Origin: a bacterium
GTDB taxonomy: Bacteria > Calditrichota > Calditrichia > RBG-13-44-9 > J042
NCBI GenBank assembly: GCA_015485355.1
Contig: WFTQ01000089.1
Coordinates: forward strand, 54,264 to 118,263
Direction: 5' to 3'
Length of the DNA stretch: 64,000 nucleotides
In this document: one piece after another, positions 40,152-64,000 of the stretch
How the letters are laid out: every line of letters starts with the position of its first letter
Numbering within the stretch: position 1 is the first letter of the stretch
Notes under the pieces: model-generated
Database searches by the model: none
What the model was told of the DNA's origin: nothing
What the model saw: the letters and a program-made list of their open reading frames with translations, nothing else
Made by a program: the position numbers and the translations under genes

Positions 40152-40152
40152 A

Positions 40153-45409: not shown

Positions 45410-46426
45410 TTGAGAATGGCGCAAAGGCCAATGAAAATATTGTGTTATACTGTGCTGGTGAGTGCTTGGTTGGGGATGAGTTGTATTACCGATGCCCCTC
45501 ATGATAATCCTTTGGACCCCCAGAACCCCAACAGCACCCTGACCCTGCGCGGGCGGGTGTTTACCCTGTATCCCCCCTATCAGGGAATTGCGGGGGTGGG
45601 CGTCTGGCTGGAGCCGCTGCACCGGTTTACCCGAACCGACGAAGCGGGTGCCTTTGGGTTCACCGATTTGAAAACGGGAACGTACACAGTGGTCACCACT
45701 ATGGAGGGCTATGCCTCCGATACCATGGAAGTGGTTTTGAAGAATCCTGTGAATGTGGAAATTTATCTGGACGCCCTGCCTCAATTTCGTCAAATCGTGT
45801 TGACCTCGCATCATTATGCCCGCTTCTTTCCGCCGGACGATTTGTATTTTCTGACCATCGACGTATTGGTCAGCGATCGGGATGGCCATTCGGATATCGT
45901 TCGTATGTGGTATGAACTGCCCGATTTAACCCTGCAGGACACCCTCCGGTTAGTGGAATTTCCCGATGCGTATTCGGCCAGATTTATTGCCCAGCGAACC
46001 CCCGAAGATTATCAGATCGCTTCTTTGCATTTATTGATAGGCAAAGCCTTTACTTTCAGGGTAGAGGACAAACCGGGAATGCGTACCGTTTCCCCTGCTT
46101 TTTATTTAACGCGTATTGTGGAAACCATCCCCGTACACGTGCAACCCACGGGCCTGGTTTCCCTTCCGGTGACCCAGGATAGCATTCGATTTGAGTGGGA
46201 GCCGGTGGTGCTGCCGTATCCCTTTTCCTTTCGAATAGAGATATACCGGTTGGACTTTGGGGTTACCACGCTGGTAAGTCGGATTGACGGGATCGCCTCA
46301 AGCCGAGTCGATTATTTATACAAAAATGACCTGACTCCCGGGGATCATTTATGGTTTCTCTATGTGGTGGACGAATACGGCAACACCGGTCGTTCCCGGG
46401 AGGGGGCCTTTCGTATCGTTCCCTAA
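45410..46426 (+). CDS. Lipoprotein with carboxypeptidase-regulatory-like (Cna-B/PEGA-like) beta-sandwich domain
   Basis: Lipobox LGMSC. LRGRVFTL...GVGVWLEP...RTDEAGAFGFTDLKTGTYTV is the CarboxypepD_reg-like pattern. Alternative start at 45431. Confidence 0.5.
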   Translation: MRMAQRPMKILCYTVLVSAWLGMSCITDAPHDNPLDPQNPNSTLTLRGRVFTLYPPYQGIAGVGVWLEPLHRFTRTDEAGAFGFTDLKTGTYTVVTTMEGYASDTMEVVLKNPVNVEIYLDALPQFRQIVLTSHHYARFFPPDDLYFLTIDVLVSDRDGHSDIVRMWYELPDLTLQDTLRLVEFPDAYSARFIAQRTPEDYQIASLHLLIGKAFTFRVEDKPGMRTVSPAFYLTRIVETIPVHVQPTGLVSLPVTQDSIRFEWEPVVLPYPFSFRIEIYRLDFGVTTLVSRIDGIASSRVDYLYKNDLTPGDHLWFLYVVDEYGNTGRSREGAFRIVP

Positions 46427-46445
46427 GCCGTTGGGGGTAAGAGGT

Positions 46446-47921
46446 ATGGCGGAAAAAAATCTCTTTGATGCGTTTCTGAAAATCAGCGAGGCGTTCAATG
46501 CCATTCAAGACAGTCGGTTGTTGTTGGAAAGGGTGATGGATCTGGCCATGGAGACCCTGGGTGCCGAGCGGGGATTTATCCTTTTACGGGGGGGCGAATC
46601 GGAAGAGGCCATCGAAGTCGTAACGGCTCGCAACATCTCCCGCCAGAGCATCGCATCGATCCAGGAGATCTCCTCCAGTGCGGTCAATCGGGTGCTTCAA
46701 AAGGGGGAGCCGGTACTTACCGTAGACGCCCAAACCGACCGGCGCTTCATGGGTGCCGAAAGTGTGGTATTGCAGAAAATCCGTTCCATTATTTGTGTGC
46801 CGTTGTGGCGGGATGGGGAGTTGATCGGTGCGATTTACATGGATAGCCGGGTCGGCGAGGTGGAGTTCGATAGAGATAGTCTTCAATTTTTAGAAGCGTT
46901 GGCCCGCCAAATCGTTGTCGCTTTAGAGAACGCCCGGCAGTTTCAGTCGCTTAAATCCGAAAACTTGCGGCTTAAGAAACAGATACCCCTTCAACAGATG
47001 TTTCCCGAAATCATCGGGCGCAGTCCCGCCATCGTGCGCATCTTTGAGTTGATCCGGGATGTGGCGGATACGAACGCCACGGTGCTCATTGAAGGAGAAA
47101 GTGGTACGGGAAAAGAACTGGTGGCCCGGGCTCTGCATTATCATTCATCCCGACGCGACAAACCGTTTATGCCTATCTTTTGTGGAAGCCTGTCGGAAAA
47201 TCTTCTGGAAAGCGAACTGTTTGGCCATCGAAAAGGCGCCTTTACCGGTGCCATCGAAAATAAAAAAGGACTTTTTGAGGAGGCCGATGGAGGCACCGTT
47301 TTCCTGGACGAAATTGCCGACATCAGTAAAAATATTCAAACCAAACTCTTGCGGGTCATTCAGGAGGGGGAGGTTAAACGCGTTGGGGACAATGTGATCC
47401 GCAGGGTCGATGTCCGGCTCATTGCGGCTACCAACAAGGATTTGTGGGAAGAAGTGCAGGCGGGTCATTTCCGGGAAGACCTGTATTACCGGTTGAATGT
47501 GATCAACATCAAAATGCCCCCTTTACGGGAGCGGGTGGAAGACATTCCCTTACTGGCGGAGCATTTTTTGCGCCGGTTTGCCCGCAAAAATCGCAAAGAG
47601 ATCGGGGGATTTACTCCCCAGGCCATGAACCTGCTTCAGGAGTATCACTGGCCGGGTAACATCCGTGAACTGGAAAACGCCATCGAACGGGCGGTCATTT
47701 TGGCCCGAGGAAAGGAGATTACCCCGGATCTGTTTTCTTTCCGGAAATCGCCCAACGTCATTATGCCTGGTCAAACCCTCAAGGAAATCGAGAAACAGGC
47801 GGTGCTTCAAACCCTGGAAATGACCGGTTACAATCGTACCCGAACGGCCGAAATCCTGGGAGTTTCGCGTCGCTGGTTGCAATACCAGCTCAAAAAATGG
47901 GGAATGGTCGATGGAGATTGA
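46446..47921 (+). CDS. Sigma-54-dependent transcriptional activator (GAF - AAA+ - Fis-type HTH)
   Basis: N-terminal GAF domain. Walker A GESGTGKE. Sigma54-contact GAFTGA motif (HRKGAFTGAIENK). C-terminal HTH RTAEILGVSRRWLQYQLKK. Confidence 0.8.
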   Translation: MAEKNLFDAFLKISEAFNAIQDSRLLLERVMDLAMETLGAERGFILLRGGESEEAIEVVTARNISRQSIASIQEISSSAVNRVLQKGEPVLTVDAQTDRRFMGAESVVLQKIRSIICVPLWRDGELIGAIYMDSRVGEVEFDRDSLQFLEALARQIVVALENARQFQSLKSENLRLKKQIPLQQMFPEIIGRSPAIVRIFELIRDVADTNATVLIEGESGTGKELVARALHYHSSRRDKPFMPIFCGSLSENLLESELFGHRKGAFTGAIENKKGLFEEADGGTVFLDEIADISKNIQTKLLRVIQEGEVKRVGDNVIRRVDVRLIAATNKDLWEEVQAGHFREDLYYRLNVINIKMPPLRERVEDIPLLAEHFLRRFARKNRKEIGGFTPQAMNLLQEYHWPGNIRELENAIERAVILARGKEITPDLFSFRKSPNVIMPGQTLKEIEKQAVLQTLEMTGYNRTRTAEILGVSRRWLQYQLKKWGMVDGD

Positions 47922-49527
47922 AGGTTACCGTATCGAAAGGGAATTGAGTCGGGGCCCCATCACCACGGTATATCTGGCCCGGCAGGTGGAATTGGACCGC
48001 CTGGTGATTCTGAAAGTGTTGAACGTCCAGTGGCAAAAAGAGAAGGACCTGGTTCAGCGGTTCCGCCGGGAAGCCCGCATCTGCGCCCGCTTGCGCCATC
48101 CCAATATCGTTACCCTCTTTGATTTCGGTACCGCAGAGGGCTCCTTTTACCTGACCATTGAATACGTGGAGGGGAAAGATTTAAGAGAACTCATCGAAGC
48201 ATATCATCCTTTGCCTTTTTCGGTGATTGCTTTTATTACCCGGGAAATTTTAAAGGGGCTCACCTATGCCCATGGCAAGGGAGTGATCCATCGGGATTTG
48301 AAACCGGCCAACATCGTCATCAGCTGGGAGGGGGAAGTCAAAATCGCCGATTTTGGACTGGCAACGCTGGGCGATTTTCCTTCGGTGACCGAACCCGGGG
48401 GTACGGTGGGGACGCCGGCATACATGTCGCCGGAGCAGGCCCGGGGCGGATCCCTGGATGCCCGCAGCGATCTGTTCAATTTGGGTGCCACCCTGTACGA
48501 ACTGTGCACCGGCCGTTCGCCTTTCGAAGGAGAAAATCTGGCCCGCAGCATTCAGAAAGTGCTGAAAGAAGACCCCCCTTATCTGGGAACACAACGGCCG
48601 GATATTCCCGAGGGATATGCCAGGCTGGTACATCGGTTGTTGGCCAAACCCAGGGAAAAGCGGCCCCAGGGCGCCGGCGAGGTGTTGGAACGGTTAAAAT
48701 CCCTTTATCCGTTTCCCGACGAAGAGATACTGATGCGTTTCCTGAAACATCCCGAAGCCGTCCTTCCCCCGCCCGAGGTTCCAACCACCACCGAACCCCG
48801 GAAGCACAAAAGCCCCAATCTGTCCTGGATAATCGCGGTACTGGCCGCTTTAACCCTGAGTGGAGGATGGTTTATACTTCAGATATTTAAAAACCGGGCG
48901 GATACCGAACATCAAAATGCCTCTTGGGTACAGATCGACGATACCTTGGTATCCAGTCGAATTTTCCCGGACACCTTCTCTGTTGAGTCCGCGGCCCCTT
49001 CTCCTGAAGAGGGGGAAAACGCCGCTTTGACGGCCGAACCGCCCGCGGTTGGAGACGCCAAGGTTTCCAGCGAAACCCCGGATGCTTCGGAGAAACCTGC
49101 GGCCCGTAGCGGTGGGATTTTTCTCACGGTGTATCCTTGGGCGGATGTTTATATTGACGGCGTGTACCGGGAACGCACCCCTTTAAAGCAGCCTTTGCCG
49201 TTGTCCGAGGGGGAGTACATAGTGGAGCTGCGAAATCCCTATTATTCTGCTTATCAAACGCGCATCCACATTGCACCGGGGCGGGTCGATACCCTGAAGG
49301 TGACCCTGAGCCCCGCCCTGGGCTATCTGAATTTGCAGGTGAGTCCCTGGGCAAGAATCTATATCGATGGAGAATATGTCGAGACTACCCCGTTGCAGGA
49401 ACCGATCGCTTTATCGGCCGGCCGGCATGTATTACGATTGGTCAACCCCAATTTTCCCGTTTGGGAGGATACCATCGAAGTGCGGGCCGGCGAGACGCTG
49501 TTCCGTAAGGTTGCTTTGAAGAATTGA
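47911..49527 (+). CDS. Transmembrane Ser/Thr protein kinase with two extracytoplasmic PEGA domains
   Basis: Kinase subdomains VAIK-like RQVELDRLVILKV, HRDLKPAN, DFG, SPEQ. TM NLSWIIAVLAALTLSGGWFI. Two PEGA repeats (VYPWADVYIDGVYRERTPL and VSPWARIYIDGEYVETTPL). Confidence 0.8.
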   Translation: MEIEGYRIERELSRGPITTVYLARQVELDRLVILKVLNVQWQKEKDLVQRFRREARICARLRHPNIVTLFDFGTAEGSFYLTIEYVEGKDLRELIEAYHPLPFSVIAFITREILKGLTYAHGKGVIHRDLKPANIVISWEGEVKIADFGLATLGDFPSVTEPGGTVGTPAYMSPEQARGGSLDARSDLFNLGATLYELCTGRSPFEGENLARSIQKVLKEDPPYLGTQRPDIPEGYARLVHRLLAKPREKRPQGAGEVLERLKSLYPFPDEEILMRFLKHPEAVLPPPEVPTTTEPRKHKSPNLSWIIAVLAALTLSGGWFILQIFKNRADTEHQNASWVQIDDTLVSSRIFPDTFSVESAAPSPEEGENAALTAEPPAVGDAKVSSETPDASEKPAARSGGIFLTVYPWADVYIDGVYRERTPLKQPLPLSEGEYIVELRNPYYSAYQTRIHIAPGRVDTLKVTLSPALGYLNLQVSPWARIYIDGEYVETTPLQEPIALSAGRHVLRLVNPNFPVWEDTIEVRAGETLFRKVALKN

Positions 49528-49545
49528 ATGGCACGAAAATTGTAA

Positions 49546-51831: not shown

Positions 51832-52284
51832 TTATAGAAACGTGGAAAAATCCACGCGGGTGGCTTGTCGGCTGAAAGTGCAGTCTTCCCCGATTAAGTT
51901 GCCTTCTACATTAATAAAACCGATCAGGCCGGGCGGTTTTTCCGAAATGGCCAATTGGGCGATGGCTCCCCCCATGCTGTGACCCATCAAAACGACGGAT
52001 GAGGGTTCAAGCCGTTGTAAAAGCGGATGGATTAAACGGGCCATCGGTTTCAGCGAATAGTCCAATCCGGGGGCTTTGCTACTCCATCCTCCACCGGGTA
52101 AATCCGGAATCGCAAGGCTGTAGCTCCGGAGCGCCGGGTGAGACCAAACGGCCCCATAATGGGTATGATCGCATCCCAATCCATGGATGAATAGTAACAA
52201 TGGGGATTGCCTTTTCCGATAGGCTGAAAACAGGGTGTGCCGGCCGAATGAAAACGACGTTGTTTGCACGGGTACGATCACCAA
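51832..52284 (-). pseudogene. Truncated alpha/beta-hydrolase fragment (N-terminal 150 aa only)
   Basis: HGLGCDHTHY oxyanion-hole region and nucleophile elbow GHSMGG are present. The ORF ends about 50 aa after the Ser, with no acid or His of the triad. Only 190 bp remain before the next gene. Confidence 0.35.
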
Positions 52285-52299
52285 TTGATTAAGAGTCCC

Positions 52300-53697
52300 T
52301 CAGCTTCTGGGCGGGGCGGCGGGAATGATCTCTCCTGCAGGGGTGTCGGCGAGGAGCCGACCCTTGTGCACCAGAATCGTTCCCCGCAAAATGGTATATT
52401 CCAAGGTCCCGGCAATTTTCATTCCCTCGTAGGGGCACCAGTCCGCCCGTCCGTGTCCGTGGCTACTGGAAAGGATGGTTTCTTGATCAGGATTCCAGAT
52501 GATCAAGTCCGCATCCAGGCCTATTTGAATGTCCCCTTTCCGATGGTTCAATCCGAAGATGCGAGCGGGGTGAGTTCCCAATACCTGAACCAATTGTTGG
52601 AGCGTTATTCGGTTTTGATGAACCCCGTAGGTATATAACAAAGGGAAAAGGGTTTCCACGCCCGGCAAACCGTTCGGGGTTTGGTGGAATTGTCGGTTCC
52701 CCTGTTCTTTCTGCTGTCGGGTAAACGGGCAGTGGTCGGTGCCGACCACATCGATGTCTCCGTTGCAAAGCGCCTGCCACAGCGCTTCCTGATCTTCTGG
52801 TCGCCTCAAGGGAGGTGTGGTAATGTAATAATGGCCGTTGGTTTTCCGGTAACATTGTTCGTTCAGCAGAAGGTATTGGGGGCAGGTTTCGATGTACAGG
52901 GGGGTTCCCCGGCTTCGGGCTTCCAGGGCGGCTTCCAGTCCTTGTCGGCTGCTCAGGTGTACAATATACAATGGTGCCTGGGTTTCGCGAGAGATGCGCG
53001 CCGCTGTTTCAATGGCGCGGGCTTCGGCTTCTGCCGGTCGGGAACGGGCGTGGTAGATCGGCTCCCGCCGGCCGGTGGAAAGATGACGATGGGTATTGCG
53101 CTCAACGATTTCATCGTCTTCGGCATGGAGCATGACCACTCCACCGGATCGGGAGACCGTTTCCAGAATGAGTCGAAATTGGGTCCAGGTGACCATCATA
53201 CCGGCCTCTTTGTAGGTGGAGAAGGTTTTAAAACTGCGGAATCCCTGCTGAATGAGGGAGGGAATCTGGTGCAGCCAGCGCTCCGGCTGGTCGGTAACGT
53301 TCACGTGAAGATGCACGTCCACGAAACTCTTCCCTCCGGCCCGGTGAATGCGTTCTTTCAGGGCCTGCTGAAGCGATTGCCCCTTGGCCTGCACCGTAAA
53401 GTCGATTATGGTGGTGATGCCTCCAAATGCGGCGGCCCGGCTGCCGGTGTTAAAGTCATCCGCCGACCAGGTGGTTTTGATGGGAATGCCCATGTGGGTG
53501 TGGGCGTCGATGAAGCCGGGGAAGACCAGGCACCCGCCGGCGTCGATTTCTTGAGCGGCTTTTGCGGGCAGGGAGGGCTCCAGGGCGGCAATCCGCCCGC
53601 CTCGAATACCGACGTCCAGACGGCGGGTCTCCCGTGAGGTGACCACCCGCCCGTTGCGAACGATTAAATCGAAGGAAGCGTTCCCTTCCGCTGCCAT
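52300..53697 (-). CDS. Cyclic amidohydrolase of the dihydropyrimidinase / D-hydantoinase family (HyuA-like)
   Basis: Metal-binding PGFIDAHTHMGIP. Overall about 465 aa of amidohydrolase fold. Start chosen at MAAEGNASFDLIV; the ORF track extends 24 codons upstream. Confidence 0.7.
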   Translation of the reverse strand: MAAEGNASFDLIVRNGRVVTSRETRRLDVGIRGGRIAALEPSLPAKAAQEIDAGGCLVFPGFIDAHTHMGIPIKTTWSADDFNTGSRAAAFGGITTIIDFTVQAKGQSLQQALKERIHRAGGKSFVDVHLHVNVTDQPERWLHQIPSLIQQGFRSFKTFSTYKEAGMMVTWTQFRLILETVSRSGGVVMLHAEDDEIVERNTHRHLSTGRREPIYHARSRPAEAEARAIETAARISRETQAPLYIVHLSSRQGLEAALEARSRGTPLYIETCPQYLLLNEQCYRKTNGHYYITTPPLRRPEDQEALWQALCNGDIDVVGTDHCPFTRQQKEQGNRQFHQTPNGLPGVETLFPLLYTYGVHQNRITLQQLVQVLGTHPARIFGLNHRKGDIQIGLDADLIIWNPDQETILSSSHGHGRADWCPYEGMKIAGTLEYTILRGTILVHKGRLLADTPAGEIIPAAPPRS

Positions 53698-53798
53698 GGC
53701 GTATCCTGTGTTGTCACATGTCACTCGCCCCGGGTGCTCGGGACTAACCCTGTGGCCCCATGGTTTCATCCGGAGCGCTTTCAGGCAACAGCCGGGGA

Positions 53799-54779
53799 TT
53801 ACATGGTTAAGGCCATAACGGCCTTCGCCGTGTGGAGCCGGTTTTCGGCTTCCTGATACACCACCGACTGCGGCCCATCAATGACGGCGTCGGTGACCTC
53901 GTATCCCCGATCGGCCGGAAGGCAATGCATGTAAATCGCCTCCTGTTTGGCCAGTTGCATTCGACGTTCGTCGCATATCCAGTCTTTGTATTTTTGGGCA
54001 ATTTGAAGCGCCTCCTGAGGCCGGTCGAACAGCTCCTGGATACCCCAGCTTTTGGGATAAACAATGTCTGCGCCTTCGAAAGCGGCGTCCATATCGTCCA
54101 CCACCTCGAATTTCACCCCAACGCGCCGGGCATTCTCCCGGGCAATGCGCAGGGGGGCTTCCATTAAGGCGTATTCCGGCGGATGGGCCAGGGTCACATC
54201 CAGACCAAAACGAGTCATTAACATGATCAATCCCTGGGGTACCGACAGGGGTTTGGCATAGGATGGAGCATAGGCCCAGGATACCACCATTTTTCGCCCC
54301 CGCAGATTTTCTCCGAAGATTTCCCGAATCGTCATCAGGTCTGCCAGGGTCTGGAAGGGATGATCCACATCGCACTGCAGGTTGAAAACCGGTTTATCGG
54401 CCCAACGTGCCATCTCTCGTATGTAACGATGGCCTTCCCCCGGTACCCGATCGTGACGAATGGCGATGGCGTGTCCATATGACGAGAGAATGATTCCCGT
54501 ATCTTTGGGACTTTCTCCGTGGGCGATTTGTGAGGTGGACACGTCGATGTAATGGGCATGCCCCCCCAGCTGGGTGATGCCGGCTTCGAACGAATTGCGC
54601 GTTCGGGTGGACTTGTCAAAAAACATGAGAAAGATGGTTTTATCGGGAAGAAATCGGTGGGGAATGTTGTGCTGAAACATAAACTTCAGTTCTTTGGCTG
54701 TGCGAAGCGCCAGTTCAATTTCCTCGTCACTCCAGTCCTGAGTGGAAATGAAATCCCGGCCTTTGAGCTGTCCGATCAT
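53799..54779 (-). CDS. YgeW-like putative carbamoyltransferase (OTCase/ATCase fold)
   Basis: Carbamoyl-phosphate-binding STRTRNSFE. N-terminal MIGQLKGRDFISTQDWSDEEIE resembles E. coli YgeW. Confidence 0.65.
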   Translation of the reverse strand: MIGQLKGRDFISTQDWSDEEIELALRTAKELKFMFQHNIPHRFLPDKTIFLMFFDKSTRTRNSFEAGITQLGGHAHYIDVSTSQIAHGESPKDTGIILSSYGHAIAIRHDRVPGEGHRYIREMARWADKPVFNLQCDVDHPFQTLADLMTIREIFGENLRGRKMVVSWAYAPSYAKPLSVPQGLIMLMTRFGLDVTLAHPPEYALMEAPLRIARENARRVGVKFEVVDDMDAAFEGADIVYPKSWGIQELFDRPQEALQIAQKYKDWICDERRMQLAKQEAIYMHCLPADRGYEVTDAVIDGPQSVVYQEAENRLHTAKAVMALTM

Positions 54780-54956
54780 GGGTCGCCTCCTTTTCGTTTT
54801 AACCTCTTACATCATCCGGTTTGCTCGGTTCGGATATTGTGTATCCCGGCTCCAGGGGATCAGAGCTACTTCCCTCCTGAAGAAGGGAATTTAATGACGG
54901 TTGACGATCAAAGGCAAAGGTTCTCTTACCGGCCGAAAAGAAAAGAGCAGGCAAGC

Positions 54957-56150
54957 TCATTTCCCCGTTTTTGCCCAGTCGAGGACGAAAGCAACATAGA
55001 AGGCTGTGGCTTTGGCCAGATGATCCAGGGGGATGTGTTCATCGGGGGCGTGAGCATACACTTCATTGCCCGGTCCAAAACCAATGGTGGGGATTTGGAA
55101 AAGGCCCATGGTGGCCACGCCATTGGTCGAAAAGGTCCATTTGTCCACCCGAGGAGCGTGATGAAAGAGCCTCCGGTAACTGTAGATCGCCGTTTGCAGC
55201 GCCGGATGATCGGAGGGCAGCACCCAGGTGGGATAATACTTCTTCATGGGATACACCGTGCCGCGGTAACTTGCCCGTCGGTATTCAGGCACCCAGGCAC
55301 GCGCGTCGGCCTTTCGAAATGCGTTCAGCGATTGAATTTCTTTCAGACAGCTGTCGATGGTTTCTCCCGCCGTTAACCGGCGGTCTAAGTGAATGGTGCA
55401 GGAGTCCGCCACGGCACACAGAGAAGGGGCCGTCGAGCGGATGTCGGAAATGGTAAGGCTGCCCGGCCCCAGAAAATCGTCCCTTGTTAAACGAGGATGG
55501 AGTCGCTCGATCTCTTGAACGATAGGGGCCATTTTGTAGATGGCATTGATCCCGCGCTCCGGTGCCGATCCATGGGCGGAAATCCCTGTCGTTTGTACTT
55601 GGATTTCCATACGGCCCCGATGACCCCGATAGATGTTCAGGTTGGTTGGCTCCGTGAGGAGAACCAGTTCGGGCTCGATGATCTGTTGTTCAATAATGTA
55701 TTTCCAGCACAGTCCGTCACAATCTTCTTCCATGACGGAAGCCACGACCCAGAGGGTGACATCTTCCGGGAGCCCCGTTTCAGCCAGAATTTTTCCGGCA
55801 TAAACGGCACTGGCTATCCCCCCTTTCTGATCGCAGGCTCCCCGGCCGTACAGTTTGCCTTCCCGGATTTCCCCTCCAAAGGGCTCGACCGTCCAGAGGT
55901 CAGGATTGCCCACGTCAACCACATCACAATGCCCATCGATCGCCACTACCCGACGGCCCCGGCCAAGACGCCCCATCACATTTCCCAGCGCGTCGATTTT
56001 TACCTCCTCAAATCCCGCTTTCTCCATTTCGGCCTGGATGCGCTGCACCACGTTTTCTTCTTCGCCGCTGAGGGAGGGTATGCGGACGATGTCTTGCAAA
56101 AAAGCGATCAGTTCGGGTTGCAATTGGAGGGCCCGTTTCAGCAGCGCCAT
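54957..56150 (-). CDS. M20-family metallopeptidase, YgeY-like
   Basis: AIDGHCDVVDVG metal site. M20 dimerisation region. 397 aa. Adjacent to the YgeW-like gene as in E. coli ygeW-ygeX-ygeY. Confidence 0.7.
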   Translation of the reverse strand: MALLKRALQLQPELIAFLQDIVRIPSLSGEEENVVQRIQAEMEKAGFEEVKIDALGNVMGRLGRGRRVVAIDGHCDVVDVGNPDLWTVEPFGGEIREGKLYGRGACDQKGGIASAVYAGKILAETGLPEDVTLWVVASVMEEDCDGLCWKYIIEQQIIEPELVLLTEPTNLNIYRGHRGRMEIQVQTTGISAHGSAPERGINAIYKMAPIVQEIERLHPRLTRDDFLGPGSLTISDIRSTAPSLCAVADSCTIHLDRRLTAGETIDSCLKEIQSLNAFRKADARAWVPEYRRASYRGTVYPMKKYYPTWVLPSDHPALQTAIYSYRRLFHHAPRVDKWTFSTNGVATMGLFQIPTIGFGPGNEVYAHAPDEHIPLDHLAKATAFYVAFVLDWAKTGK

Positions 56151-56338
56151 TTTCTCTCCTCCTTTTTCGCCTGAAACAATGGATTATCGCAAATCCTCCC
56201 AACAAAATAAAGACAAAATTGAAATCGTTCTGCAAGAAGTAATGAACGGTATTCTCAGCTTTCGCTACGATCGGATGCAATATTTGCTTATATTTTATTG
56301 TGGGGATATCAGGTTAGTCAAAAATTGCCGGGGGCATC

Positions 56339-57544
56339 ATGGCGGATTTTTTCCAGAATGGGCTCATTGCCACGTTACATCGCCTGAAGCAACGGCCGTT
56401 GGAATCTCTGGAAGCCGAGCTGAAGCGGTTTTCGCGAAAGCGCCCCATGGCGTTGGTGCTGCCGACGCTGTACTCCGAGTTGGAAGGCGAGGCCTTACCG
56501 AATATCATTGCGGAATTGCGCCAAGTGGAATATATCCAGGAGATCGTGATCGGATTGGATCGGGCGACCAAAAGCGAATTTCATTTTGCCAAAACCTTTT
56601 TTTCCGATCTGCCTCAGCCGCACCGGGTCATCTGGCAGGATGGCCCCAACATGTTGAAATTGCACGAGTTGTTAAAACACCATGGCCTCTCCATCGGCGA
56701 ACCGGGAAAAGGGCGCAACGCCTGGTTTTGCTTTGGGTATATTCTTTCGGCGGGCCGTTCCCGGGCCGTGGCCATTCACGATTGCGATATCTTAACCTAC
56801 GATCGCCACCTCCTGGCGCGCTTGTTTTATCCCGTCGCCAACCCCAATTTCGGCATTAAATTCTGTAAAGGGTACTATGCCCGGGTGACCGACCGATTGA
56901 ATGGACGGGTCACCCGACTGTTCGTGACCCCGCTGGTACGTTCCCTGAAAAAAATCCTGGGCCCTCTGGAGTATCTGGATTTTCTGGATGGTTTCCGCTA
57001 TCCCCTGGCCGGCGAGTTTTCGATGGGTGTGGATGTGCTGGAGCATATTCGTATTCCCAGCGATTGGGGATTGGAAGTGGGGGTGTTGTCCGAAGTATAC
57101 CGCAATTACGCCCTCAAACAGATTTGTCAGGTGGATATTGCCGATGAATTCGATCATAAACATCAGCCCCTCTCCGAAGAAGATCCTAACGCCGGCCTTT
57201 CGAAAATGACCATCGATATTGCCAAATCGATTTATCGAACCCTGGCCAGCATGGGGGTGGTGTTCTCCGAGGAGTTTTTTCGAACCATTAAGGCCACCTA
57301 TTTACGAACCGCCTTCGATTTTCTGGAAAAATATTATTACGATGCCAAGATTAACGGCCTCGACTTCGACCGGCATCAGGAGGAAAAGACCATCGAGGTG
57401 TTCATTCGCAGTATCATCATCGCCGGGGAACAGTTCCTGGCCAATCCCATGGAAGTGCCTCTCATTCCCAACTGGAGTCGGGTCATCTCGGCTATTCCTG
57501 AATTTTACGATCTGCTTTACAAATCGGTGGAGGAAGATAATTAA
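56339..57544 (+). CDS. Glucosyl-3-phosphoglycerate synthase-like retaining glycosyltransferase (GT81/GpgS-like)
   Basis: MALVLPTLYSELEGE, GKGRNAWF, AIHDCDIL (DxD), TDRLNGRVTRLFVTPLV, LAGEFS and DWGLEVGVLSE align with M. tuberculosis GpgS motifs (ISVVLPALNEE, GKGEALW, DSDL, GGGRVTELVARPLL, LSGEYA, GYGVEIGLLID). Confidence 0.55.
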   Translation: MADFFQNGLIATLHRLKQRPLESLEAELKRFSRKRPMALVLPTLYSELEGEALPNIIAELRQVEYIQEIVIGLDRATKSEFHFAKTFFSDLPQPHRVIWQDGPNMLKLHELLKHHGLSIGEPGKGRNAWFCFGYILSAGRSRAVAIHDCDILTYDRHLLARLFYPVANPNFGIKFCKGYYARVTDRLNGRVTRLFVTPLVRSLKKILGPLEYLDFLDGFRYPLAGEFSMGVDVLEHIRIPSDWGLEVGVLSEVYRNYALKQICQVDIADEFDHKHQPLSEEDPNAGLSKMTIDIAKSIYRTLASMGVVFSEEFFRTIKATYLRTAFDFLEKYYYDAKINGLDFDRHQEEKTIEVFIRSIIIAGEQFLANPMEVPLIPNWSRVISAIPEFYDLLYKSVEEDN

Positions 57545-57712
57545 CCGTCCCGTATCGCAACGTCAAGGCGGCACCGACGCACCCTCCCCTGAATGCAGTT
57601 GCATTCCCCCGGCGGGCTTGTTATTTTCTTTTCCAGAGGGGGCTGATGAAACAACGGGAAGTTTTTTACTCCCAGAAGGGAGAGGCGGTTTGTAACCCTT
57701 TTGGGTGGATCG

Positions 57713-57727
57713 GGAACCAGAGGTTCC
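57713..57727 (+). promoter_or_regulatory. Palindrome GGAACC-AGA-GGTTCC 44 bp upstream of xdhA
   Basis: Read directly. Partner of the 43068..43081 site. Confidence 0.3.
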
Positions 57728-57770
57728 TAAAATCGAAACGTTTTTACTTTGACAATGACGGGAGTGCGCC

Positions 57771-59192
57771 ATGGCTGCCCCCATTCATTTCTGGCTGAAC
57801 AACGAAGAACTCCGCTGCAACGAACCACCGGGATTATCGGTACTGGACTATTTACGCAAAAGGCGCCGTTTGGTGGGCACCAAGGAGGGTTGCAAAGAAG
57901 GGGATTGCGGTGCCTGTACCGTGCTGGTCGGGGAATTGCAGGGGCGGCAGGTGATTTACCGGCCGATGACCTCCTGTTTGATGCCGCTGGGCGAATTGCA
58001 CGGTAAACATCTGGTCACGATCGAAGGGATTAACCGACCCGAGTTGAATCCCGTACAGCAAGCCATTGTTCAGGAAGGCGCCACCCAGTGCGGCTTTTGT
58101 ACCCCCGGTATTGTGATGTCCCTGATGGGGTATATCATGCAAAAGGGACAGGTAGTGGATGCCCGGGGCATAAAGCGGTGGCTGAGTGGACATTTGTGCC
58201 GTTGTACGGGGTATCGTTCGCTGAAAGCCGTTGCCGGACATCTGCAAACCAGTGTAGGAGATCGCCCGGGGATAGAGAACCTGATTCGAAACCGATGGTT
58301 GCCGGAATACTTTGCCCACATGCCGCGCCGGTTGGCCCGCATCGCCCCGCCGGTGCACCGGGATGGAAAACCGGAAAACCGGCTGATCATTGCCGGCGGA
58401 ACCGATATTTATGTCCAACGGGGGGAGGAACTGCCCGAAACCGATGTCTTCCTGTTCAATTTGATGCCCAAGCCGAAGGGCATACGCCTTTCAGGAAAGG
58501 CTTTGCACATCGGGGCCCTGACAACTTTTGAAGAACTGGCCGCCCATGCTCAGGTCCGGCGGCTCATTCCCCGTATTCGTGAATATATGCACCTGATAGC
58601 CTCGTTGCAAATTCGCCATCGTGCCACGGTAGGGGGGAATATTATCAATGCCTCCCCCATTGCCGATATTGTGATCCTGTTTCTGGCGCTGGATGTTCGC
58701 CTGGTGTTGCAGAAGGGCAGGCAGCGGCGGGTGCTGCCTCTGCGACAGTTTTACTTGGGGTATAAACGGATGGATCAACGGCCGGGAGAAATTCTTGTAG
58801 AGGTACAAATCCCTCGCGATGTTGAAGGTTGCCGCATTCATTTCGAGAAGGTCAGTAAACGCCGGACGCTGGATATCGCTTCGGTGAACAGCGCCATATG
58901 CTTGCGTTCCAATGATGATGGAACCATTGAGAGCGCCGCCGTAGCTGTGGGGGGGGTCGCCCCGGTGCCGCTTTTTCTGGAGAAAACCAGCCGCTTTCTG
59001 GAAGGAAAATCCTGCCGTCCGGAAACGGTGTTGCAGGCCGTTGAAATCGCCATGACCGAAATATCTCCCATCAGCGATGTCAGAGGGAGCGCCGATTATA
59101 AGCGTTTATTGACCCGTCAGCTCATCATTGCCCATTTTACAACCCTGTTCCCGGATAAAATGCAGGTGAGGGAATTTTATGAAGTCCACTGA
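57771..59192 (+). CDS. xdhA: Xanthine dehydrogenase small subunit ([2Fe-2S] x2 plus FAD-binding domain; XdhA of Rhodobacter-type nomenclature)
   Basis: Plant-type [2Fe-2S] CKEGDCGACTV. Second cluster CGFCTPG...CRCTGY. FAD-binding domain RLIIAGGTDIYVQ. Confidence 0.8.
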   Translation: MAAPIHFWLNNEELRCNEPPGLSVLDYLRKRRRLVGTKEGCKEGDCGACTVLVGELQGRQVIYRPMTSCLMPLGELHGKHLVTIEGINRPELNPVQQAIVQEGATQCGFCTPGIVMSLMGYIMQKGQVVDARGIKRWLSGHLCRCTGYRSLKAVAGHLQTSVGDRPGIENLIRNRWLPEYFAHMPRRLARIAPPVHRDGKPENRLIIAGGTDIYVQRGEELPETDVFLFNLMPKPKGIRLSGKALHIGALTTFEELAAHAQVRRLIPRIREYMHLIASLQIRHRATVGGNIINASPIADIVILFLALDVRLVLQKGRQRRVLPLRQFYLGYKRMDQRPGEILVEVQIPRDVEGCRIHFEKVSKRRTLDIASVNSAICLRSNDDGTIESAAVAVGGVAPVPLFLEKTSRFLEGKSCRPETVLQAVEIAMTEISPISDVRGSADYKRLLTRQLIIAHFTTLFPDKMQVREFYEVH

Positions 59193-61491
59193 TGCCATTT
59201 TACATACCCGGGGGGAATCCCGTTACGTGGACGATCTTCCTCAACCCGAAGGCCTGCTGCATGCCGCGGTGTTTTTTTCTCCCATCGCCCATGGTCGGAT
59301 ACAGAATTTCGATGTTTCCCGGGCCCGTCAATCGGAAGGGGTGGTGGCCGTACTGACCGCGGAAGATATTCCAGGAGAAAACCAGATCGGGCCACTGATC
59401 CCCGATCAAGAGCTTCTGGCCGAGGAGGAAGTGGTCTACATTGGACAGCCGGTGGCGCTGATTGTGGCCCAAACCGCCGAAACGGCCCGAAAGGCGGCCG
59501 GGCGGATTGTTCTGGATGTGGAAGAGTATCCGGTGATCACCGATCCCCGCGAGGCTTATCAGAAGGGGCAGATCTTTGGAACGCCGCGCACCTTTCAGCT
59601 GGGCGATGTGGATGCCGCCTGGCCACACTGTGAGGTCGTTGTGGAGGGACATTGCGAGGTTGGGGGGCAGGAGCATGTATACCTGGAAACCCAGCGCGCC
59701 CGTGCCGTCCCCGGCGAGGGGCGGGTGATCAGAGTTTATTCCTCAACCCAGAGCCCTTACGCGGTGCAGAAACATGTGGCCCGGGTGCTGGGATATCCCA
59801 ATCACCTCATCGAGGTCGACGTGTTGCGGCTGGGCGGAGGTTTCGGCGGTAAGGAAGACCAGGCCACCCCCTGGGCCTGCCTGACGGCGTTAGCCACCTG
59901 GTATACCGGACATCCGGTGGAACTGGTCTTGACCCGTCAAGAAGATATGCTGATGACCGGAAAGCGCCATCCTTATTGTTCCGACTTTAAGATCGGGGTC
60001 ACCCGGGAGGGCAAGATTCTGGCTTACGAGGTCCGGCATTACCAGAATGCCGGCGCCGCGGCGGACCTGTCTCCCGCAATCCTGGAACGCACCCTGTTCC
60101 ATAGTACCAATAGTTATTATATTCCCAATGTTCGTCTGTTTGCAGTATCCTGTCGCACCCATCTTCCGCCATTTACGGCTTTTCGGGGATTCGGCGGTCC
60201 CCAGGGAATGTTTGTGATGGAGGCCGCTATTGCCCGGGTGGCCGAGGCCCTGGGAATGCCCCGGGAGGAGATTCAGCGGAAAAATTTGCTTCAGGAAAAC
60301 GACCTGTTCCCCTATGGACAACGGGTGGTGGATTGCCGGGCCCGCCGGAGCTGGGATGTCGCCATGGAAACGTATCGCTTTTCCGCTTGGAAGAAACGGG
60401 TGGAACAGTTTAACCGGAAGCATTTCCACCGGAAAAAAGGCCTGGCGGTCATGCCCATATGTTTCGGCATCTCTTTTACGGCGACCTTTCTGAATCAGGC
60501 CAGTGCGCTGGTGCATGTGTATACCGATGGAAGTGTCAGCATTTCCACCGGTGGCGTGGAAATGGGCCAGGGTCTGCGGGCAAACATTACCACCATCGCT
60601 GCTCGGGCGCTGGGAATTCGGCCGGAACGCATCAAGATAGAGTCGACCAACACCACCCGTATCGCCAACATGTCCCCCAGTGCTGCCAGTGCAACCACGG
60701 TGCTCAACGGGAATGCGACCCTTCTGGCTATCCGGCAGATTGTGTCGCGCCTGAAATCCATGATTGCCCGGGAACTAAATTTATCCGATCCCGATCGGGT
60801 GACCATTCATGACGAGAAAGTGTGGTATCGGGGTAGCCAGACCGGTTGGACCTGGACGCAGTTGGTCCAGACGGCCTACGGCAAACGCATTAATCTCTCG
60901 GCCCAGGGCTTTTTTGCCACGCCGGGCATCTATTTCGACAAGCAAAAAGAAAAAGGCCGGCCTTTTGCCTATCATGTATACGGTACGGCCATTCTGGAGG
61001 TAACGCTGGATTGCTTACGGGGAATCTATACCATCGATGCCGTGAAAATTGTCCACGATCTGGGGCGTCCCCTGAATCGTCTCATCGATCTGGGGCAGGT
61101 AGAGGGAGGGCTGGCGCAGGGTTTGGGGTGGATGACCGTGGAAGAGCTGCTTTTCGATGAGAAGGGACGCAACTTGTCCAGTGCCCTGGCCACCTATAAA
61201 CCGCCCGATGTATACTTCATGCCCGACGATCTTCAGGTGACCTTTCTGGAAAATGCCGACGAACCCATAGGTCCCTATGGCAATAAAGCCGTGGGGGAGC
61301 CGCCGTTTATGTACGGAATCGGGGTGTTTTTTGCCCTTCGCCAGGCCATGCAAGCGTTTCGCCCCCGCAAGGATTATGAATTCAAGGCACCCTTGACACC
61401 CGAAAGGGTGCTTTTGGAATTGCATCGGGAAGAGGTGAGACAGGGGTGTCTACGGCCGGCAACGGTGGAGTCTGCAAGGCAGTCGGACTGA
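59179..61491 (+). CDS. xdhB: Xanthine dehydrogenase / aldehyde oxidase molybdopterin-binding large subunit
   Basis: 770 aa. a/b hammerhead domain. Mo-cofactor region GGGFGGKE. Active-site Glu region GEPPFMYGIG. Confidence 0.85.
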   Translation: MKSTDAILHTRGESRYVDDLPQPEGLLHAAVFFSPIAHGRIQNFDVSRARQSEGVVAVLTAEDIPGENQIGPLIPDQELLAEEEVVYIGQPVALIVAQTAETARKAAGRIVLDVEEYPVITDPREAYQKGQIFGTPRTFQLGDVDAAWPHCEVVVEGHCEVGGQEHVYLETQRARAVPGEGRVIRVYSSTQSPYAVQKHVARVLGYPNHLIEVDVLRLGGGFGGKEDQATPWACLTALATWYTGHPVELVLTRQEDMLMTGKRHPYCSDFKIGVTREGKILAYEVRHYQNAGAAADLSPAILERTLFHSTNSYYIPNVRLFAVSCRTHLPPFTAFRGFGGPQGMFVMEAAIARVAEALGMPREEIQRKNLLQENDLFPYGQRVVDCRARRSWDVAMETYRFSAWKKRVEQFNRKHFHRKKGLAVMPICFGISFTATFLNQASALVHVYTDGSVSISTGGVEMGQGLRANITTIAARALGIRPERIKIESTNTTRIANMSPSAASATTVLNGNATLLAIRQIVSRLKSMIARELNLSDPDRVTIHDEKVWYRGSQTGWTWTQLVQTAYGKRINLSAQGFFATPGIYFDKQKEKGRPFAYHVYGTAILEVTLDCLRGIYTIDAVKIVHDLGRPLNRLIDLGQVEGGLAQGLGWMTVEELLFDEKGRNLSSALATYKPPDVYFMPDDLQVTFLENADEPIGPYGNKAVGEPPFMYGIGVFFALRQAMQAFRPRKDYEFKAPLTPERVLLELHREEVRQGCLRPATVESARQSD

Positions 61492-61572
61492 GCGGGGCAT
61501 GGAAAAGGGATCGCGGCGGCCGCTTTTTCTCACCGGGCAAGCAAAGAGGAGAAACGGAGTGACCATTTCCCC

Positions 61573-62697
61573 ATGAAGCATTCGATATTACAGGAATGGA
61601 TCCGGTGCATGCGGAGCAGGCGATCCTGTGTGCTGGTGACGGTTGTGGAAACAAGGGGGTCTTCTCCCCAGAAGCCGGGTGCCCGTATGCTGGTGTTCCC
61701 GGACGGATCCTTTAAGGGCACTCTGGGCGGTGGCTGTGTAGAAGGGGACCTGTGGTACCAGGCCCGGCGCCTGTTCAAAGAGGGGGGAGACGCCCGGGTG
61801 ATTCGCCGTACGTTAAATGCGGATCTGGCGGCCCGGGATGGCATGGTATGCGGAGGGACCATGACCTTCCTGCTGGAACCTTTTTTCGATGATTCCCCCC
61901 TCCCTCCGGAACTGGACGAACTGGAACAGGCGATTCTGGGAAAGACCCCCGTGGCTCTGGTCACCGTGGTCGAAGACCCTCAATCCAATATGCCAGCGGG
62001 AACCCGGTGGTTGGTCCGTGGGGATGGAACGGTGAAGGGACCTTCCAATGCCCGGAGGCTGGCCCCCGAAGTCGTCACCCTGGCCAAACAGCTGGCCCCC
62101 TATGGTGATAATCGGCTTTTCACGACCCCGGCAGGCCTGCAGGTGTTTGTGGAAGGAATTACGGCCCCGGCAACCCTGATATTGTTGGGAGCAGGGCATG
62201 TGAACAAGGCCATTGCCGATCTGGCCGGTTATCTGGATTTTCGCATCATAGTTGTCGACGATCGATCCGATTTGGCCGACCGGGAAAGGTTTCCTTGTGC
62301 GGATGCCGTTTGGGTGGAGCCGTACGATCGCGCGCTGCAACAAATGCAAATTTCCCATAATTCCTTTATCATTGCCGCTACCCGGGGACACAAATTCGAT
62401 GACCAGGCGGTAAAACACGCCCTGGCCACACCGGCGCGTTACATCGGTATTCTGGGCAGCCAACGGAAAGTTCTGATGATCGTGCGGCATTTGTTGCAAG
62501 AAGGTCTGGCACCCGATCAGTTAAAGAGGATATACGCCCCGGTGGGCCTGGACATCGGTGCTTTAACCCCGGAAGAAATCGCTGTGAGCGTGCTGGCCGA
62601 GGTGATAATGGTGCGTCGGGGCGGGAGCGGAACCTCCCTGCGAATCCCCGACGATGAATACCTGTCCCGGTTTCCTCTCTCCGATGCCAACCCATAA
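61573..62697 (+). CDS. xdhC: XdhC/CoxI-family molybdenum-hydroxylase maturation factor
   Basis: N-terminal XdhC_CoxI domain LVTVVETRGSSPQKPGARML. C-terminal Rossmann-like LILLGAGHVNKAIADLA. Alternative start at 61609. Confidence 0.75.
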   Translation: MKHSILQEWIRCMRSRRSCVLVTVVETRGSSPQKPGARMLVFPDGSFKGTLGGGCVEGDLWYQARRLFKEGGDARVIRRTLNADLAARDGMVCGGTMTFLLEPFFDDSPLPPELDELEQAILGKTPVALVTVVEDPQSNMPAGTRWLVRGDGTVKGPSNARRLAPEVVTLAKQLAPYGDNRLFTTPAGLQVFVEGITAPATLILLGAGHVNKAIADLAGYLDFRIIVVDDRSDLADRERFPCADAVWVEPYDRALQQMQISHNSFIIAATRGHKFDDQAVKHALATPARYIGILGSQRKVLMIVRHLLQEGLAPDQLKRIYAPVGLDIGALTPEEIAVSVLAEVIMVRRGGSGTSLRIPDDEYLSRFPLSDANP

Positions 62698-62942
62698 TGT
62701 GTTCCCCCGGCTCCGCCGTTTTACTGAAAAGGGGTATGCATTCCTTTTCAACAATTCCGGAGCCCTTTGAATGAGGAGGCCTTTCCGCGGTTTTCCTTCC
62801 GCAGGGCGTCCAGGGAGTCAATAGGGCTCAAGATTTTTAAAATTTTTGCAAAATTAGGGAAAAAGGGCTCGAAAACGCCCCGTTTTTCTCAAGATTATTA
62901 CCGGTAGTGTCGATTCTGACAGAAAAAAGAGGGGGTGCAGGC

Positions 62943-63482
62943 ATGCATGGCATTGTATTTTCCGAATTGCGAAAGTTTGTGGAACATTCTTTGGGACCCG
63001 GGTCCTGGCAAAAACTGTTAAAGGAAGCCGGTTTGGGCAATCGAATTTACATGGCCATTCAGGAGTATCCCGATGAGGAAGCGGGTGTTCTGGTTGAGGC
63101 CGCTGCCCGGATTACCCGTAAGTCCCCGACCGCTATTCTGGAGGAGTTTGGGCAGTATATTGCCCCTCAGTTGCTCCAGATGTACAAGGCCTTGATATCG
63201 CCGCAGTGGCGTACCCTGGACTTGATCGAGCATACCGAGGATGTGATCCATAAGGTGGTGCGGGCGAAGAATCCCGGAGCCAGGCCGGCGGAGTTGAAAT
63301 GCCAGAGGGTCAGTCCATCGGAGCTCATCTTGGTCTATGCATCCAATCGCCGCATGTGTGCTCTGGCCAGGGGGATTGCCCGTGGCGTGGCCGATCACTA
63401 TGGGGAACGCCTTTCCGTCTCCGAAACGCAATGTATGCATAACGGCGCACCCGAGTGCCACATTCGGTTACGGGTGATGTAA
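62943..63482 (+). CDS. Stand-alone H-NOX (haem nitric oxide/oxygen-binding) sensor domain protein
   Basis: MHGIVFSELRKFVEHSLGPGSWQKLL aligns with the Caldanaerobacter H-NOX start MKGIIFNVLEDMVVAQCGMSVWNELL. Proximal His in DVIHKVV. Y-x-S-x-R haem-propionate motif YASNRR. C-terminal TQCMHNGAPECHIRLRV vs DTCMHTGADHCMLIIEL. SD-like GAGGGGG precedes the start. Confidence 0.7.
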   Translation: MHGIVFSELRKFVEHSLGPGSWQKLLKEAGLGNRIYMAIQEYPDEEAGVLVEAAARITRKSPTAILEEFGQYIAPQLLQMYKALISPQWRTLDLIEHTEDVIHKVVRAKNPGARPAELKCQRVSPSELILVYASNRRMCALARGIARGVADHYGERLSVSETQCMHNGAPECHIRLRVM

Positions 63483-63679
63483 TGAACCATCCGGGGGGCT
63501 GGTCACCGGCATATGGGGGATGCTGGTGACCAGAGTTTTTTCCGTCACCTCTTCAGGATGATGAAAGGATTACCCACTTTTTCTCACCTGAATTCCCTTA
63601 AGATTTTGATTCCGTCCATTGAGGCCCTATTTTTATTTTCCTTGGGTTTGGAGGTATCATCGCAAAGCGGGAGTGTCTC

Positions 63680-64000
63680 ATGGCGTTATTCATTACCAAT
63701 GTGGATGTTTTTACCAACGATGAGAAGAACCGTTTGATTCATGATGGTGCGGTGGCCATTGAGGGGAATCGGATCGTTGCCGTGGGGCGGTTGTTGGCGT
63801 TGCGGGAACAGTTTGCTCACTTTCCCCGGTTGGACGGCGGCGGTCGATTGTTGATGCCGGGTTGGATAAACGTTCACATGCATTTTTATAGCACTTTCGC
63901 CAGGGGGCTGGCGGTGAGGCGCAAGCCGCGGAATTTCGCCGAGATTTTGGCATACCTATGGTGGAAGCTGGATCGTTCGCTGGACCTGGAAGCGGTTTAT
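63680..64000 (+). CDS. ssnA: SsnA-family amidohydrolase (chlorohydrolase/deaminase superfamily), partial: first 107 aa
   Basis: LLMPGWINVHMHFYSTFARGL...ILAYLWWKLDRSLDLEAVY aligns with E. coli SsnA (IVMPGIVCSHNHFYSGLSRGI...LKNLWWRLDRALDEESLY). Runs off the window end. Confidence 0.7.
   Translation, partial: MALFITNVDVFTNDEKNRLIHDGAVAIEGNRIVAVGRLLALREQFAHFPRLDGGGRLLMPGWINVHMHFYSTFARGLAVRRKPRNFAEILAYLWWKLDRSLDLEAVY

Follow-up and report, generated by a model that had tools for sequence, protein, structure and literature searches.

Among characterised proteobacterial proteins, an H-NOX gene lies as a rule beside the gene of its signalling partner (PMC8738867), and the canonical operons are of the types hnoX-hnoK, hnoX-GGDEF/EAL, and H-NOX-MCP. 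The closest described stand-alone proteins, of about 180 aa, are those of Shewanella oneidensis (So H-NOX; SO2144; PDB 2KII, 4U99, 4U9B) and Vibrio cholerae (Vc H-NOX). Proteins of this type ("groups 2–3") have a zinc site made of three cysteines and a fourth ligand that is His or Gln (PMC7108781), and the cysteines of Vc H-NOX act in vitro as a haem-independent redox switch (PMC7108781; PMC8738867). Binding of O2 by H-NOX requires a distal Tyr, which is missing from the NO-selective class (PMC8738867). The O2-binding reference is Tt H-NOX of Caldanaerobacter/Thermoanaerobacter tengcongensis (1U55), which is fused to an MCP, has the distal network W9/N74/Y140, and lacks the site of three cysteines.

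The second described system that bears on this locus is the reductive uric-acid (2,8-dioxopurine) pathway, elucidated recently in E. coli, for which E. coli and C. difficile have an XdhD-YgfK-SsnA-HyuA-YgeW-YgeY-YgeX cluster (PMC12507026). Published surveys of SsnA neighbourhoods list no H-NOX. In the stretch of 64,000 nucleotides analysed here as a whole (the window), an H-NOX gene lies inside such a cluster, between xdhC and ssnA (Table 1). The contig matches the Calditrichota MAG GCA_015492835.1, and identical copies are present in other assemblies.

Table 1. Coordinates, in the window, of the H-NOX gene, its flanking elements, the urate/purine genes, and the nearest signalling genes
Feature	Position	Strand	Remarks
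cheA / cheZ-like / cheR group	37046–41392		among the nearest signalling genes in the window
GAF-sigma-54 activator	46362–47921		among the nearest signalling genes in the window
Ser/Thr kinase	47911–49527		among the nearest signalling genes in the window
Hydantoinase, HyuA-like	52300–53769	−	454.8 bits, cut-off 393
YgeW-like carbamoyltransferase	53799–54779	−	
YgeY hydrolase	54957–56150	−	550.8 bits, cut-off 321
xdhA, Fe-S/FAD subunit	57771–59192	+	2Fe-2S and FAD domains
xdhB, Mo subunit	59179–61491	+	Mo-cofactor domains; overlaps xdhA by 14 nt
xdhC, molybdenum-cofactor insertion chaperone family	61573–62697	+	Pfam XdhC_CoxI and XdhC_C
Upstream region, presumed own promoter/leader of H-NOX	62838–62942	+	partly conserved in three clade genomes; ends in the RBS
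H-NOX gene, 179 aa	62943–63482	+	HNOB match, motif alignment, AlphaFold2 model
Putative intrinsic-terminator hairpin	63499–63543	+	14-bp stem, 7-nt loop, then T-run; 17 nt past the stop codon
ssnA, 5′ part, amidohydrolase of the reductive urate pathway	63680–64000	+	runs off the window

A Stand-Alone H-NOX Protein

The gene begins with an ATG and ends with a stop codon at 63480–63482. Its putative ribosome-binding site (RBS), AGGGGGTG at 62930–62937, has the correct spacing to the ATG; the block from the RBS to the ATG is kept in three genomes, and the sequence farther upstream diverges. In the family alignment the homologues have MHG as their N-terminus. The longer GTG start at 62907, which is the choice of the ORF list, is unlikely, as the position of the RBS and the MHG N-termini of the homologues favour the ATG. 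A reverse-strand ORF at 63018–63461 overlaps the H-NOX frame, which has strong support, and is for this reason regarded as spurious.

The Pfam profile HNOB (PF07700) matches the protein over profile positions 1–162 of 163 (E 2.2e-33; 115.9 bits, with a gathering cut-off of 25.5 bits), and no model of the NCBIfam scan names it. The C-terminus also matches Pfam V4R (4-vinyl reductase, PF02830; E 2.6e-9), the likeness covering the last 45 residues with their cysteine pattern (37.4 bits against a cut-off of 31 bits). V4R corresponds only to the C-terminal β-sheet/zinc part, whereas the window protein has the full-length H-NOX architecture and the haem ligands. Among solved structures the best match is So H-NOX (2KII/4U9B; E 5e-18), on which residues 1–176 align without gaps to residues 1–176, even though the window protein is only about 25% identical to the So/Vc proteins. 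His103 aligns with the proximal His103 of So H-NOX, the residue mutated in 2KIL (H103G), and the YxSxR motif, which here reads Y132-A-S134-N-R136 (YASNR), falls on YSSPR. In a family alignment of 45 sequences that are 28–84% identical to the window protein, H103, Y132, S134, R136, C139, C164, and C172 are invariant. Ala116 of the window clade takes the place of the Pro found in 40 of these 45 members and in most H-NOX, including Tt H-NOX (P115).

The AlphaFold2 model computed from the 45-sequence alignment has a mean pLDDT of 95.8 and a pTM of 0.90. When it was compared with the PDB by Foldseek, the top 46 matches were all H-NOX or sGC β1 domains. The fold is the same as in the So/Vc proteins (TM 0.91; 0.91–0.92 for 4U9B and 4U99), and the likeness to Tt H-NOX (TM about 0.84) extends to the haem His and YxSxR. 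Profile, alignment, and model concur with the sequence-only reading of these 540 nucleotides, which had claimed a stand-alone H-NOX with a haem His, a YxSxR motif, and end-to-end similarity to characterised proteins; the profile score and His103 bear out the family assignment and the presence of the proximal His. The protein belongs to a subfamily that is widespread, measures about 180 aa, and has a putative Cys3 zinc site in its V4R-like C-terminal half.

Distal Pocket and Putative Zinc Site

At the positions of W9/N74/Y140 in Tt H-NOX, the window protein has L9/I73/L141, and these positions are hydrophobic across the family alignment. The pocket is non-polar, as in So/Vc H-NOX, and the Tyr/Trp/Asn hydrogen-bonding network of the O2-binding Tt type is not found at the aligned distal positions. 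The So sequence used in the pocket alignment came from the structure-database match; the other is what we take to be the Tt H-NOX sequence, and it reproduces the published W9/N74/H102/P115/Y131/S133/R135/Y140 numbering. The hydrophobic pocket predicts a protein that is selective for NO and does not bind O2, which is how the earlier suggestion of reading the ligand preference from the distal pocket turned out. The ORF can be taken to encode a stand-alone H-NOX of this predicted non-O2-binding type, and by homology the protein would be expected to bind haem and NO. Cultured Caldithrix are anaerobic nitrate reducers, which makes NO sensing plausible for the phylum Calditrichota.

C139, C164, and C172 align with the zinc ligands Cys139, Cys164, and Cys172 of So H-NOX. 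The fourth ligand position is Glu161, unlike the His161 of the So protein and the Gln of the Vc protein, and metal binding is putative.

The Surrounding Genes

The gene lies between xdhC and ssnA, as had been claimed. XdhB scores 779 bits against TIGR02965, slightly below the cut-off of 849.5. The 106 aa of SsnA inside the window match NCBIfam NF005540 with E 2e-30, and the full-length protein (451 aa, from locus L001) reaches 495.9 bits for a cut-off of 444. Past the window there are a 651-aa Fe-S protein that matches the N-terminal 400 positions of YgfK (a half-length YgfK), an MTH1187-type protein on the opposite strand, an 858-aa enzyme of the selenium-dependent-XDH/XdhD type (994.6 bits, cut-off 830), and two PLP enzymes whose best scores are threonine-synthase-like and cysteine-synthase-like. 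The genes around H-NOX are, by these matches, the predicted set of the reductive uric-acid pathway together with a conventional xdhABC. The gene set matches that of the E. coli/C. difficile cluster, from which the window clade differs in having xdhABC, a GpgS-like glycosyltransferase, and the MTH1187-type protein in addition, a YgfK of half length, and the PLP enzymes just named.

The window gene is not in an operon with a kinase HnoK as in the So/Vc case, having purine-catabolic neighbours instead, and it has neither the adjacent nor the fused partner of the canonical operons, including the MCP fusion of Tt H-NOX. No histidine kinase, GGDEF/EAL, or MCP gene occurs within 10 kb downstream of it, so that the claimed lack of a canonical partner next door holds. 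Among the genes of the urate cluster there is no obvious dedicated regulator. Of the signalling genes in the window, those closest to H-NOX encode a sigma-54 EBP and a Ser/Thr kinase, about 13–16 kb away; cheA/cheR genes lie at about 21–26 kb.

Transcription Unit

The gap between xdhC and H-NOX is 245 nt long and that between H-NOX and ssnA 197 nt; in the relatives they measure 270–620 nt and 530–600 nt, respectively. In L007, one of the two other genomes of the clade, copies of a 57–124-nt repeat have moved into both gaps, as expected at the boundaries of transcription units. The hairpin that follows the gene (−34.4 kcal/mol, z −2.6) precedes a T-run, AGTTTTTT. Its stem is kept in L007 and in L008, the third genome, through compensatory C:G to T:A changes. 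A good T-run is present in the window and in L007; that of L008 is weak, so that some read-through from H-NOX into ssnA is possible. A separate conserved block lies upstream of ssnA, at about 63585–63640. The large gaps, the conserved upstream block and RBS, the conserved terminator, and the separate block of ssnA together make H-NOX look like a transcription unit of its own.

Upstream of H-NOX there is nothing convincing as a sigma-70 consensus, and the promoter type of the phylum may differ. Sigma-54 promoters were considered since a GAF-sigma-54 activator sits 16 kb upstream; the scan found 29 where 27 were expected, and no site in the intergenic regions of the cluster. An Rfam scan of 52000–64000 at E ≤ 0.1 returned no riboswitch or other RNA. 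The motif TYAAGATTWT occurs three times in the window, always in the two gaps that flank H-NOX. It was rejected as a shared operator, having been derived post hoc from these same gaps and not being conserved in L007 or L008. The motif search established no operator common to H-NOX and the other promoters of the cluster.

Distribution of the Linkage

We searched for the linkage in both directions, covering the H-NOX subfamily nearest the window protein and the nearest 80 XdhB loci. In the forward direction, an alignment of 15 H-NOX sequences was scanned against one genome per species (GTDB set). This gave 80 loci in Gemmatimonadota, Acidobacteriota, Myxococcota, Chloroflexota, Nitrospirota, Calditrichia, haloarchaea, and other groups. 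Twelve proteins of the window cluster were then compared by tblastn (E ≤ 1e-10) with these loci (±10 kb). The sole match was L015, whose contig is that of L007. The other 79 species loci, which have a median length of 12.5 kb (50 of them with at least 10 kb), contain no homologue of Xdh, SsnA, YgeY, YgeW, or HyuA near H-NOX. The closest metagenomic relatives, L011 and L012, likewise have no protein of the window cluster near theirs. In the reverse direction, a metagenome scan with XdhB provided the nearest 80 XdhB loci (50–84% identity), which were searched by tblastn (E ≤ 1e-5) with the window H-NOX and 42 family members. One of the 80 has an H-NOX, namely L095, which is of the L008/L010 lineage and so of the same clade; the 79 others have none.

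The linkage is found in the window genome, in L007/L015, and in L008/L095, that is, in three diverged genomes of one Calditrichota clade. Because the whole region of about 20 kb is collinear within this single clade, the three cases count as one evolutionary event. The region has undergone other changes: in L007 a Dus gene has been inserted, and the repeat elements surround H-NOX. A cluster with the same gene order, L135, encodes XdhB, XdhC, SsnA, a YgfK-like protein, and XdhD with 73%, 46%, 64%, 61%, and 71% identity, respectively. In L135 xdhC ends about 65 nt before ssnA, and both H-NOX and the MTH1187 gene are absent. The simplest history is a single insertion of H-NOX between xdhC and ssnA in the ancestor of the window clade.

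Since then the gene has been well conserved. The window H-NOX is 83–84% identical to those of L007/L015 and L008, and its dN/dS with respect to these two relatives is 0.05–0.06 at a near-saturated dS of 1.4–1.8. The corresponding dN/dS values are 0.06–0.08 for XdhB, 0.16–0.23 for XdhC, and 0.11 for SsnA, so that H-NOX is as constrained as the catalytic XdhB and more so than XdhC or SsnA. In GC content (0.55) and GC3 (0.64) it does not differ from its neighbours. Strong purifying selection and a neighbour-like composition mark H-NOX as a long-resident and, by prediction, functional gene. A recent horizontal transfer was discarded on the grounds of this equal composition and of the saturated dS between clade members.

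Neighbours of Related H-NOX Genes

The neighbours of H-NOX in the subfamily are diverse, with 92 Pfam families immediately downstream and 85 immediately upstream. The tallies are lower bounds, being based on crude ORF calls and Pfam families at 81 loci on high-GC MAG contigs. The most frequent families among the immediate neighbours are MCPsignal (6/76), HisKA/HATPase (4/76 and 3/78), GAF (4/78), and GGDEF (2/78). Within three genes of H-NOX, receiver/GGDEF/HK genes cluster at 17 loci, MCP genes at 6, and Ser/Thr kinase genes at 5; CheA and an anti-sigma-like ATPase also recur. A signalling gene is adjacent at no fewer than 17 of the 81 loci and within three genes at no fewer than 30. The contexts of the closest relatives, with properly called genes, point the same way. 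CstA/LonC adjoin the H-NOX of a relative with 60% identity, and a cheA-MCP-cheW-cheR-cheB cluster that of a relative with 58% identity. Elsewhere the neighbour is an ABC exporter, or an MCP directly downstream of H-NOX. In Pendulispora, the homologue is part of a Ser/Thr-kinase-Roadblock-V4R array, directly preceded by a V4R-only gene. This adjacency of some close relatives to MCP or CheA genes is one link to Tt H-NOX. Among the sampled relatives, purine enzymes are never recurrent neighbours; the recurrent ones are signalling proteins.

The premise that H-NOX adjoins its partner, from which the sequence-only reading had started, is valid for those proteobacterial proteins that have been characterised (PMC8738867). 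It does not extend to this subfamily, where a signalling gene was found adjacent at 17 of 81 loci (a lower bound). An orphan placement appears to be the normal situation here, and the evidence points to the window gene being an ordinary orphan of a large and mostly uncharacterised H-NOX subfamily.

Discussion

The explanation that we consider probable is that the gene encodes an NO-selective haem sensor, possibly responsive to thiol redox as well, which contacts a partner encoded elsewhere and owes its site in the cluster to a single ancestral insertion. If the protein works as its S. oneidensis and V. cholerae homologues do, NO would bind the ferrous haem, upon which the Fe-His103 bond would break and the N- and C-terminal subdomains would shift. 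The altered surface would change the activity of a separate partner through protein-protein contact, and the protein could also be triggered in a second way, by oxidation of the cysteines of the zinc site. The partner would not be encoded next to the gene; by analogy with the relatives, it may be of the MCP/CheA chemotaxis type, a two-component/GGDEF protein, or a Ser/Thr kinase. We infer both this signalling mechanism and the kind of partner from such analogies. Having been inserted once between xdhC and ssnA, the gene would then have been passed on by vertical descent, with a transcript of its own.

Other roles of the protein itself have to be weighed against this. It might be an O2 sensor, or a store or carrier of NO (buffering, delivery), instead of the receptor of an NO signal. 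The H-NOX fold does bind O2 in obligate anaerobes, as in Tt H-NOX, and the host phylum is known to be mostly anaerobic. With L9/I73/L141 replacing W9/N74/Y140, however, the Tyr/Trp/Asn network is missing, and a review of the family (PMC8738867) yielded no precedent for a bacterial H-NOX as an NO carrier, which leaves these roles extremely improbable. The protein could also function mainly as a haem-independent thiol/zinc redox switch, activated when oxidants form disulfides among C139, C164, and C172. It would then report oxidative stress to an anaerobe, a role that is compatible with NO sensing. The three cysteines are invariant in the 45 homologues and align with the zinc ligands of So H-NOX, and the mechanism is documented for haem-free Vc H-NOX (PMC7108781; PMC8738867), albeit in vitro only. 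Yet His103 and the YxSxR propionate clamp are equally invariant, which argues for the use of haem; Glu161 stands where the characterised proteins have His or Gln; and Cys177, which makes the second disulfide of Vc H-NOX, has no counterpart. We regard a mainly redox-driven protein as unlikely.

The position of the gene raises the further question of whether H-NOX ties purine/urate catabolism to the sensing of NO or of redox state, by contacting XdhAB, XdhC, or XdhD and so modulating their activity or maturation, or by way of a regulator of the cluster. The idea draws on the ability of xanthine oxidoreductases to reduce nitrite to NO and on the sensitivity of these enzymes to NO and O2. Several observations fit such a coupling: the position between xdhC and ssnA has been retained in three genomes with dS > 1.3 despite the other changes in the region, H-NOX is as constrained as XdhB, and with neither a signalling partner within 10 kb nor a dedicated regulator in the cluster, a regulatory role is left unfilled. 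Furthermore, H-NOX proteins work by protein-protein contact, and an enzyme as target is conceivable (PMC8738867). Against this, the linkage arose once, and all 79 other H-NOX loci and all 79 other XdhB loci lack it; the sister-type cluster L135 does without H-NOX, the gene seems to be transcribed separately and has a conserved terminator, no regulatory motif has been established as shared with the other promoters of the cluster, and the relatives, which recurrently adjoin signalling genes, never adjoin purine genes. Such a coupling is, in our judgement, quite improbable. H-NOX and the purine cluster are probably not functionally coupled, and the location of the gene in the cluster is most likely historical.

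The sequence-only reading had offered two proposals, a redox- or NO-responsive control of the breakdown of purines and a non-signalling role, such as to buffer or deliver NO for the molybdoenzyme. The confinement of the linkage to one clade, the cluster of L135, and the apparently separate transcription unit leave both proposals unsupported, and the recurrence in related genomes that had been looked for does not extend beyond that clade. The coupling idea is unsupported rather than disproved, because the linkage is present in three genomes and no kinase gene lies just past ssnA; a linkage unique to this genome with such a kinase had been named as the sign of a chance juxtaposition. The pairing was also said to be unreported, and this is borne out in that neither the literature searched for H-NOX together with xanthine dehydrogenase nor the survey of SsnA neighbourhoods contains it. 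What is new here is the genomic context of a new member of a known H-NOX family, not a new kind of system.

It is distinctly unlikely, in our estimation, that this Calditrichota clade has made its predicted NO-selective H-NOX an accessory of the anaerobic urate/purine pathway, for example through binding to XdhC, the Mo-enzymes, or an unlinked regulator of the cluster. If it had been, purine oxidation or reduction would be throttled upon exposure to NO, whether this came from the cell's own nitrate/nitrite reduction or from the reduction of nitrite by xanthine oxidoreductase. It would also be the first H-NOX to act on a metabolic enzyme system and not on a kinase, a c-di-GMP enzyme, or a chemoreceptor. 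A functional position would extend H-NOX signalling beyond biofilm, motility, and quorum sensing to the direct control of metabolism, and would link NO to the newly described anaerobic route of urate degradation. More generally, the textbook rule that hnoX lies next to its partner fails in most genomes of this subfamily, and it is experiment or the analysis of co-evolution, not gene neighbourhood, that is needed to find the partners of its members.

The H-NOX Gene and Its Flanks

Position 116 of H-NOX is Ala in the clade versus Pro in 40 of the 45 members of the family alignment. It corresponds to Pro115 of the O2-binding Tt H-NOX, a residue that the title of PDB entry 3EEE links to haem distortion. 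The Ala may change haem planarity or redox potential in the clade proteins. The orthologue in the sister genome (P0002) is labelled "heme ABC transporter permease CcmB" by NCBI. This identity was rejected as a misannotation, as the protein has HNOB and V4R domains and lacks membrane segments.

In the same sister genome (contig L007), both intergenic gaps flanking H-NOX are filled by copies of a 57–124-nt repeat, which look like MITE/REP-type elements; this repeat is absent from the window. In the gap between H-NOX and ssnA, a block is kept in all three clade genomes, the remainder not being conserved. It has no match in Rfam and could serve ssnA as promoter or operator.

Other Genes of the Purine-Degradation Cluster

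Within the cluster, the gene for a GpgS-like glycosyltransferase is clade-specific, as is H-NOX. Its product had no match in the Pfam search and scores 359 bits with the NCBIfam model GpgS_Meth, below the cut-off of 700. It is 96%–98% identical among the three clade genomes, whereas the genes flanking it give only 60%–86%. The dN/dS of 0.011–0.016 (with dS saturated) between these genomes indicates that the protein is under extreme constraint. Downstream of the window, on the extended source contig (L001), the YgfK-like Fe-S protein covers only positions 4–399 of the 1012 of the YgfK model (432 bits, cut-off 835). Its flavin/NAD(P) half might be absent, or be supplied by a gene at another locus.

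Features discussed in the text (window coordinates unless a contig is named)
Feature	Position	Strand	Remark
CheA	37046–38881	-	chemotaxis-type group
CheZ-like protein	38878–39771	-	chemotaxis-type group
CheR	40511–41392	-	chemotaxis-type group
HEAT-repeat protein	41431–42750	-	chemotaxis-type group
Whole chemotaxis-type group	37046–42750	-	~20–26 kb from H-NOX
Activator	46362–47921	+	GAF, sigma-54-interaction, HTH_8 (domain matches)
-24/-12 element	49529–49544	+	TGGCACGAAAATTGTA; consensus scan
GpgS-like glycosyltransferase	56339–57544	+	401 aa; between ygeY and xdhA
H-NOX codon 116	63288–63290		Ala in clade
Conserved block	63585–63640	+	~55 nt, upstream of ssnA; TGAATTCCCTTAAGATTTTGATTCC...GGCCCTATTTT
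Repeat copies	L007 9445–9836, 10899–11080	direct and inverted	either side of H-NOX
P0002	L007/L015 10001–10540		84% identical to window H-NOX
YgfK-like Fe-S protein	L001 12200–14155		651 aa; cluster member

Possible Signalling Genes

Elsewhere in the window, there is a putative sigma-54-dependent activator whose domain order is the same as that of the NO sensor NorR. A near-consensus -24/-12 element ends 2 nt 5′ of a Kelch/T9SS-tail gene (starting at 49546). Because CheA or MCP genes adjoin H-NOX in some of its close relatives, the chemotaxis-type group of the window is a candidate partner system of H-NOX.
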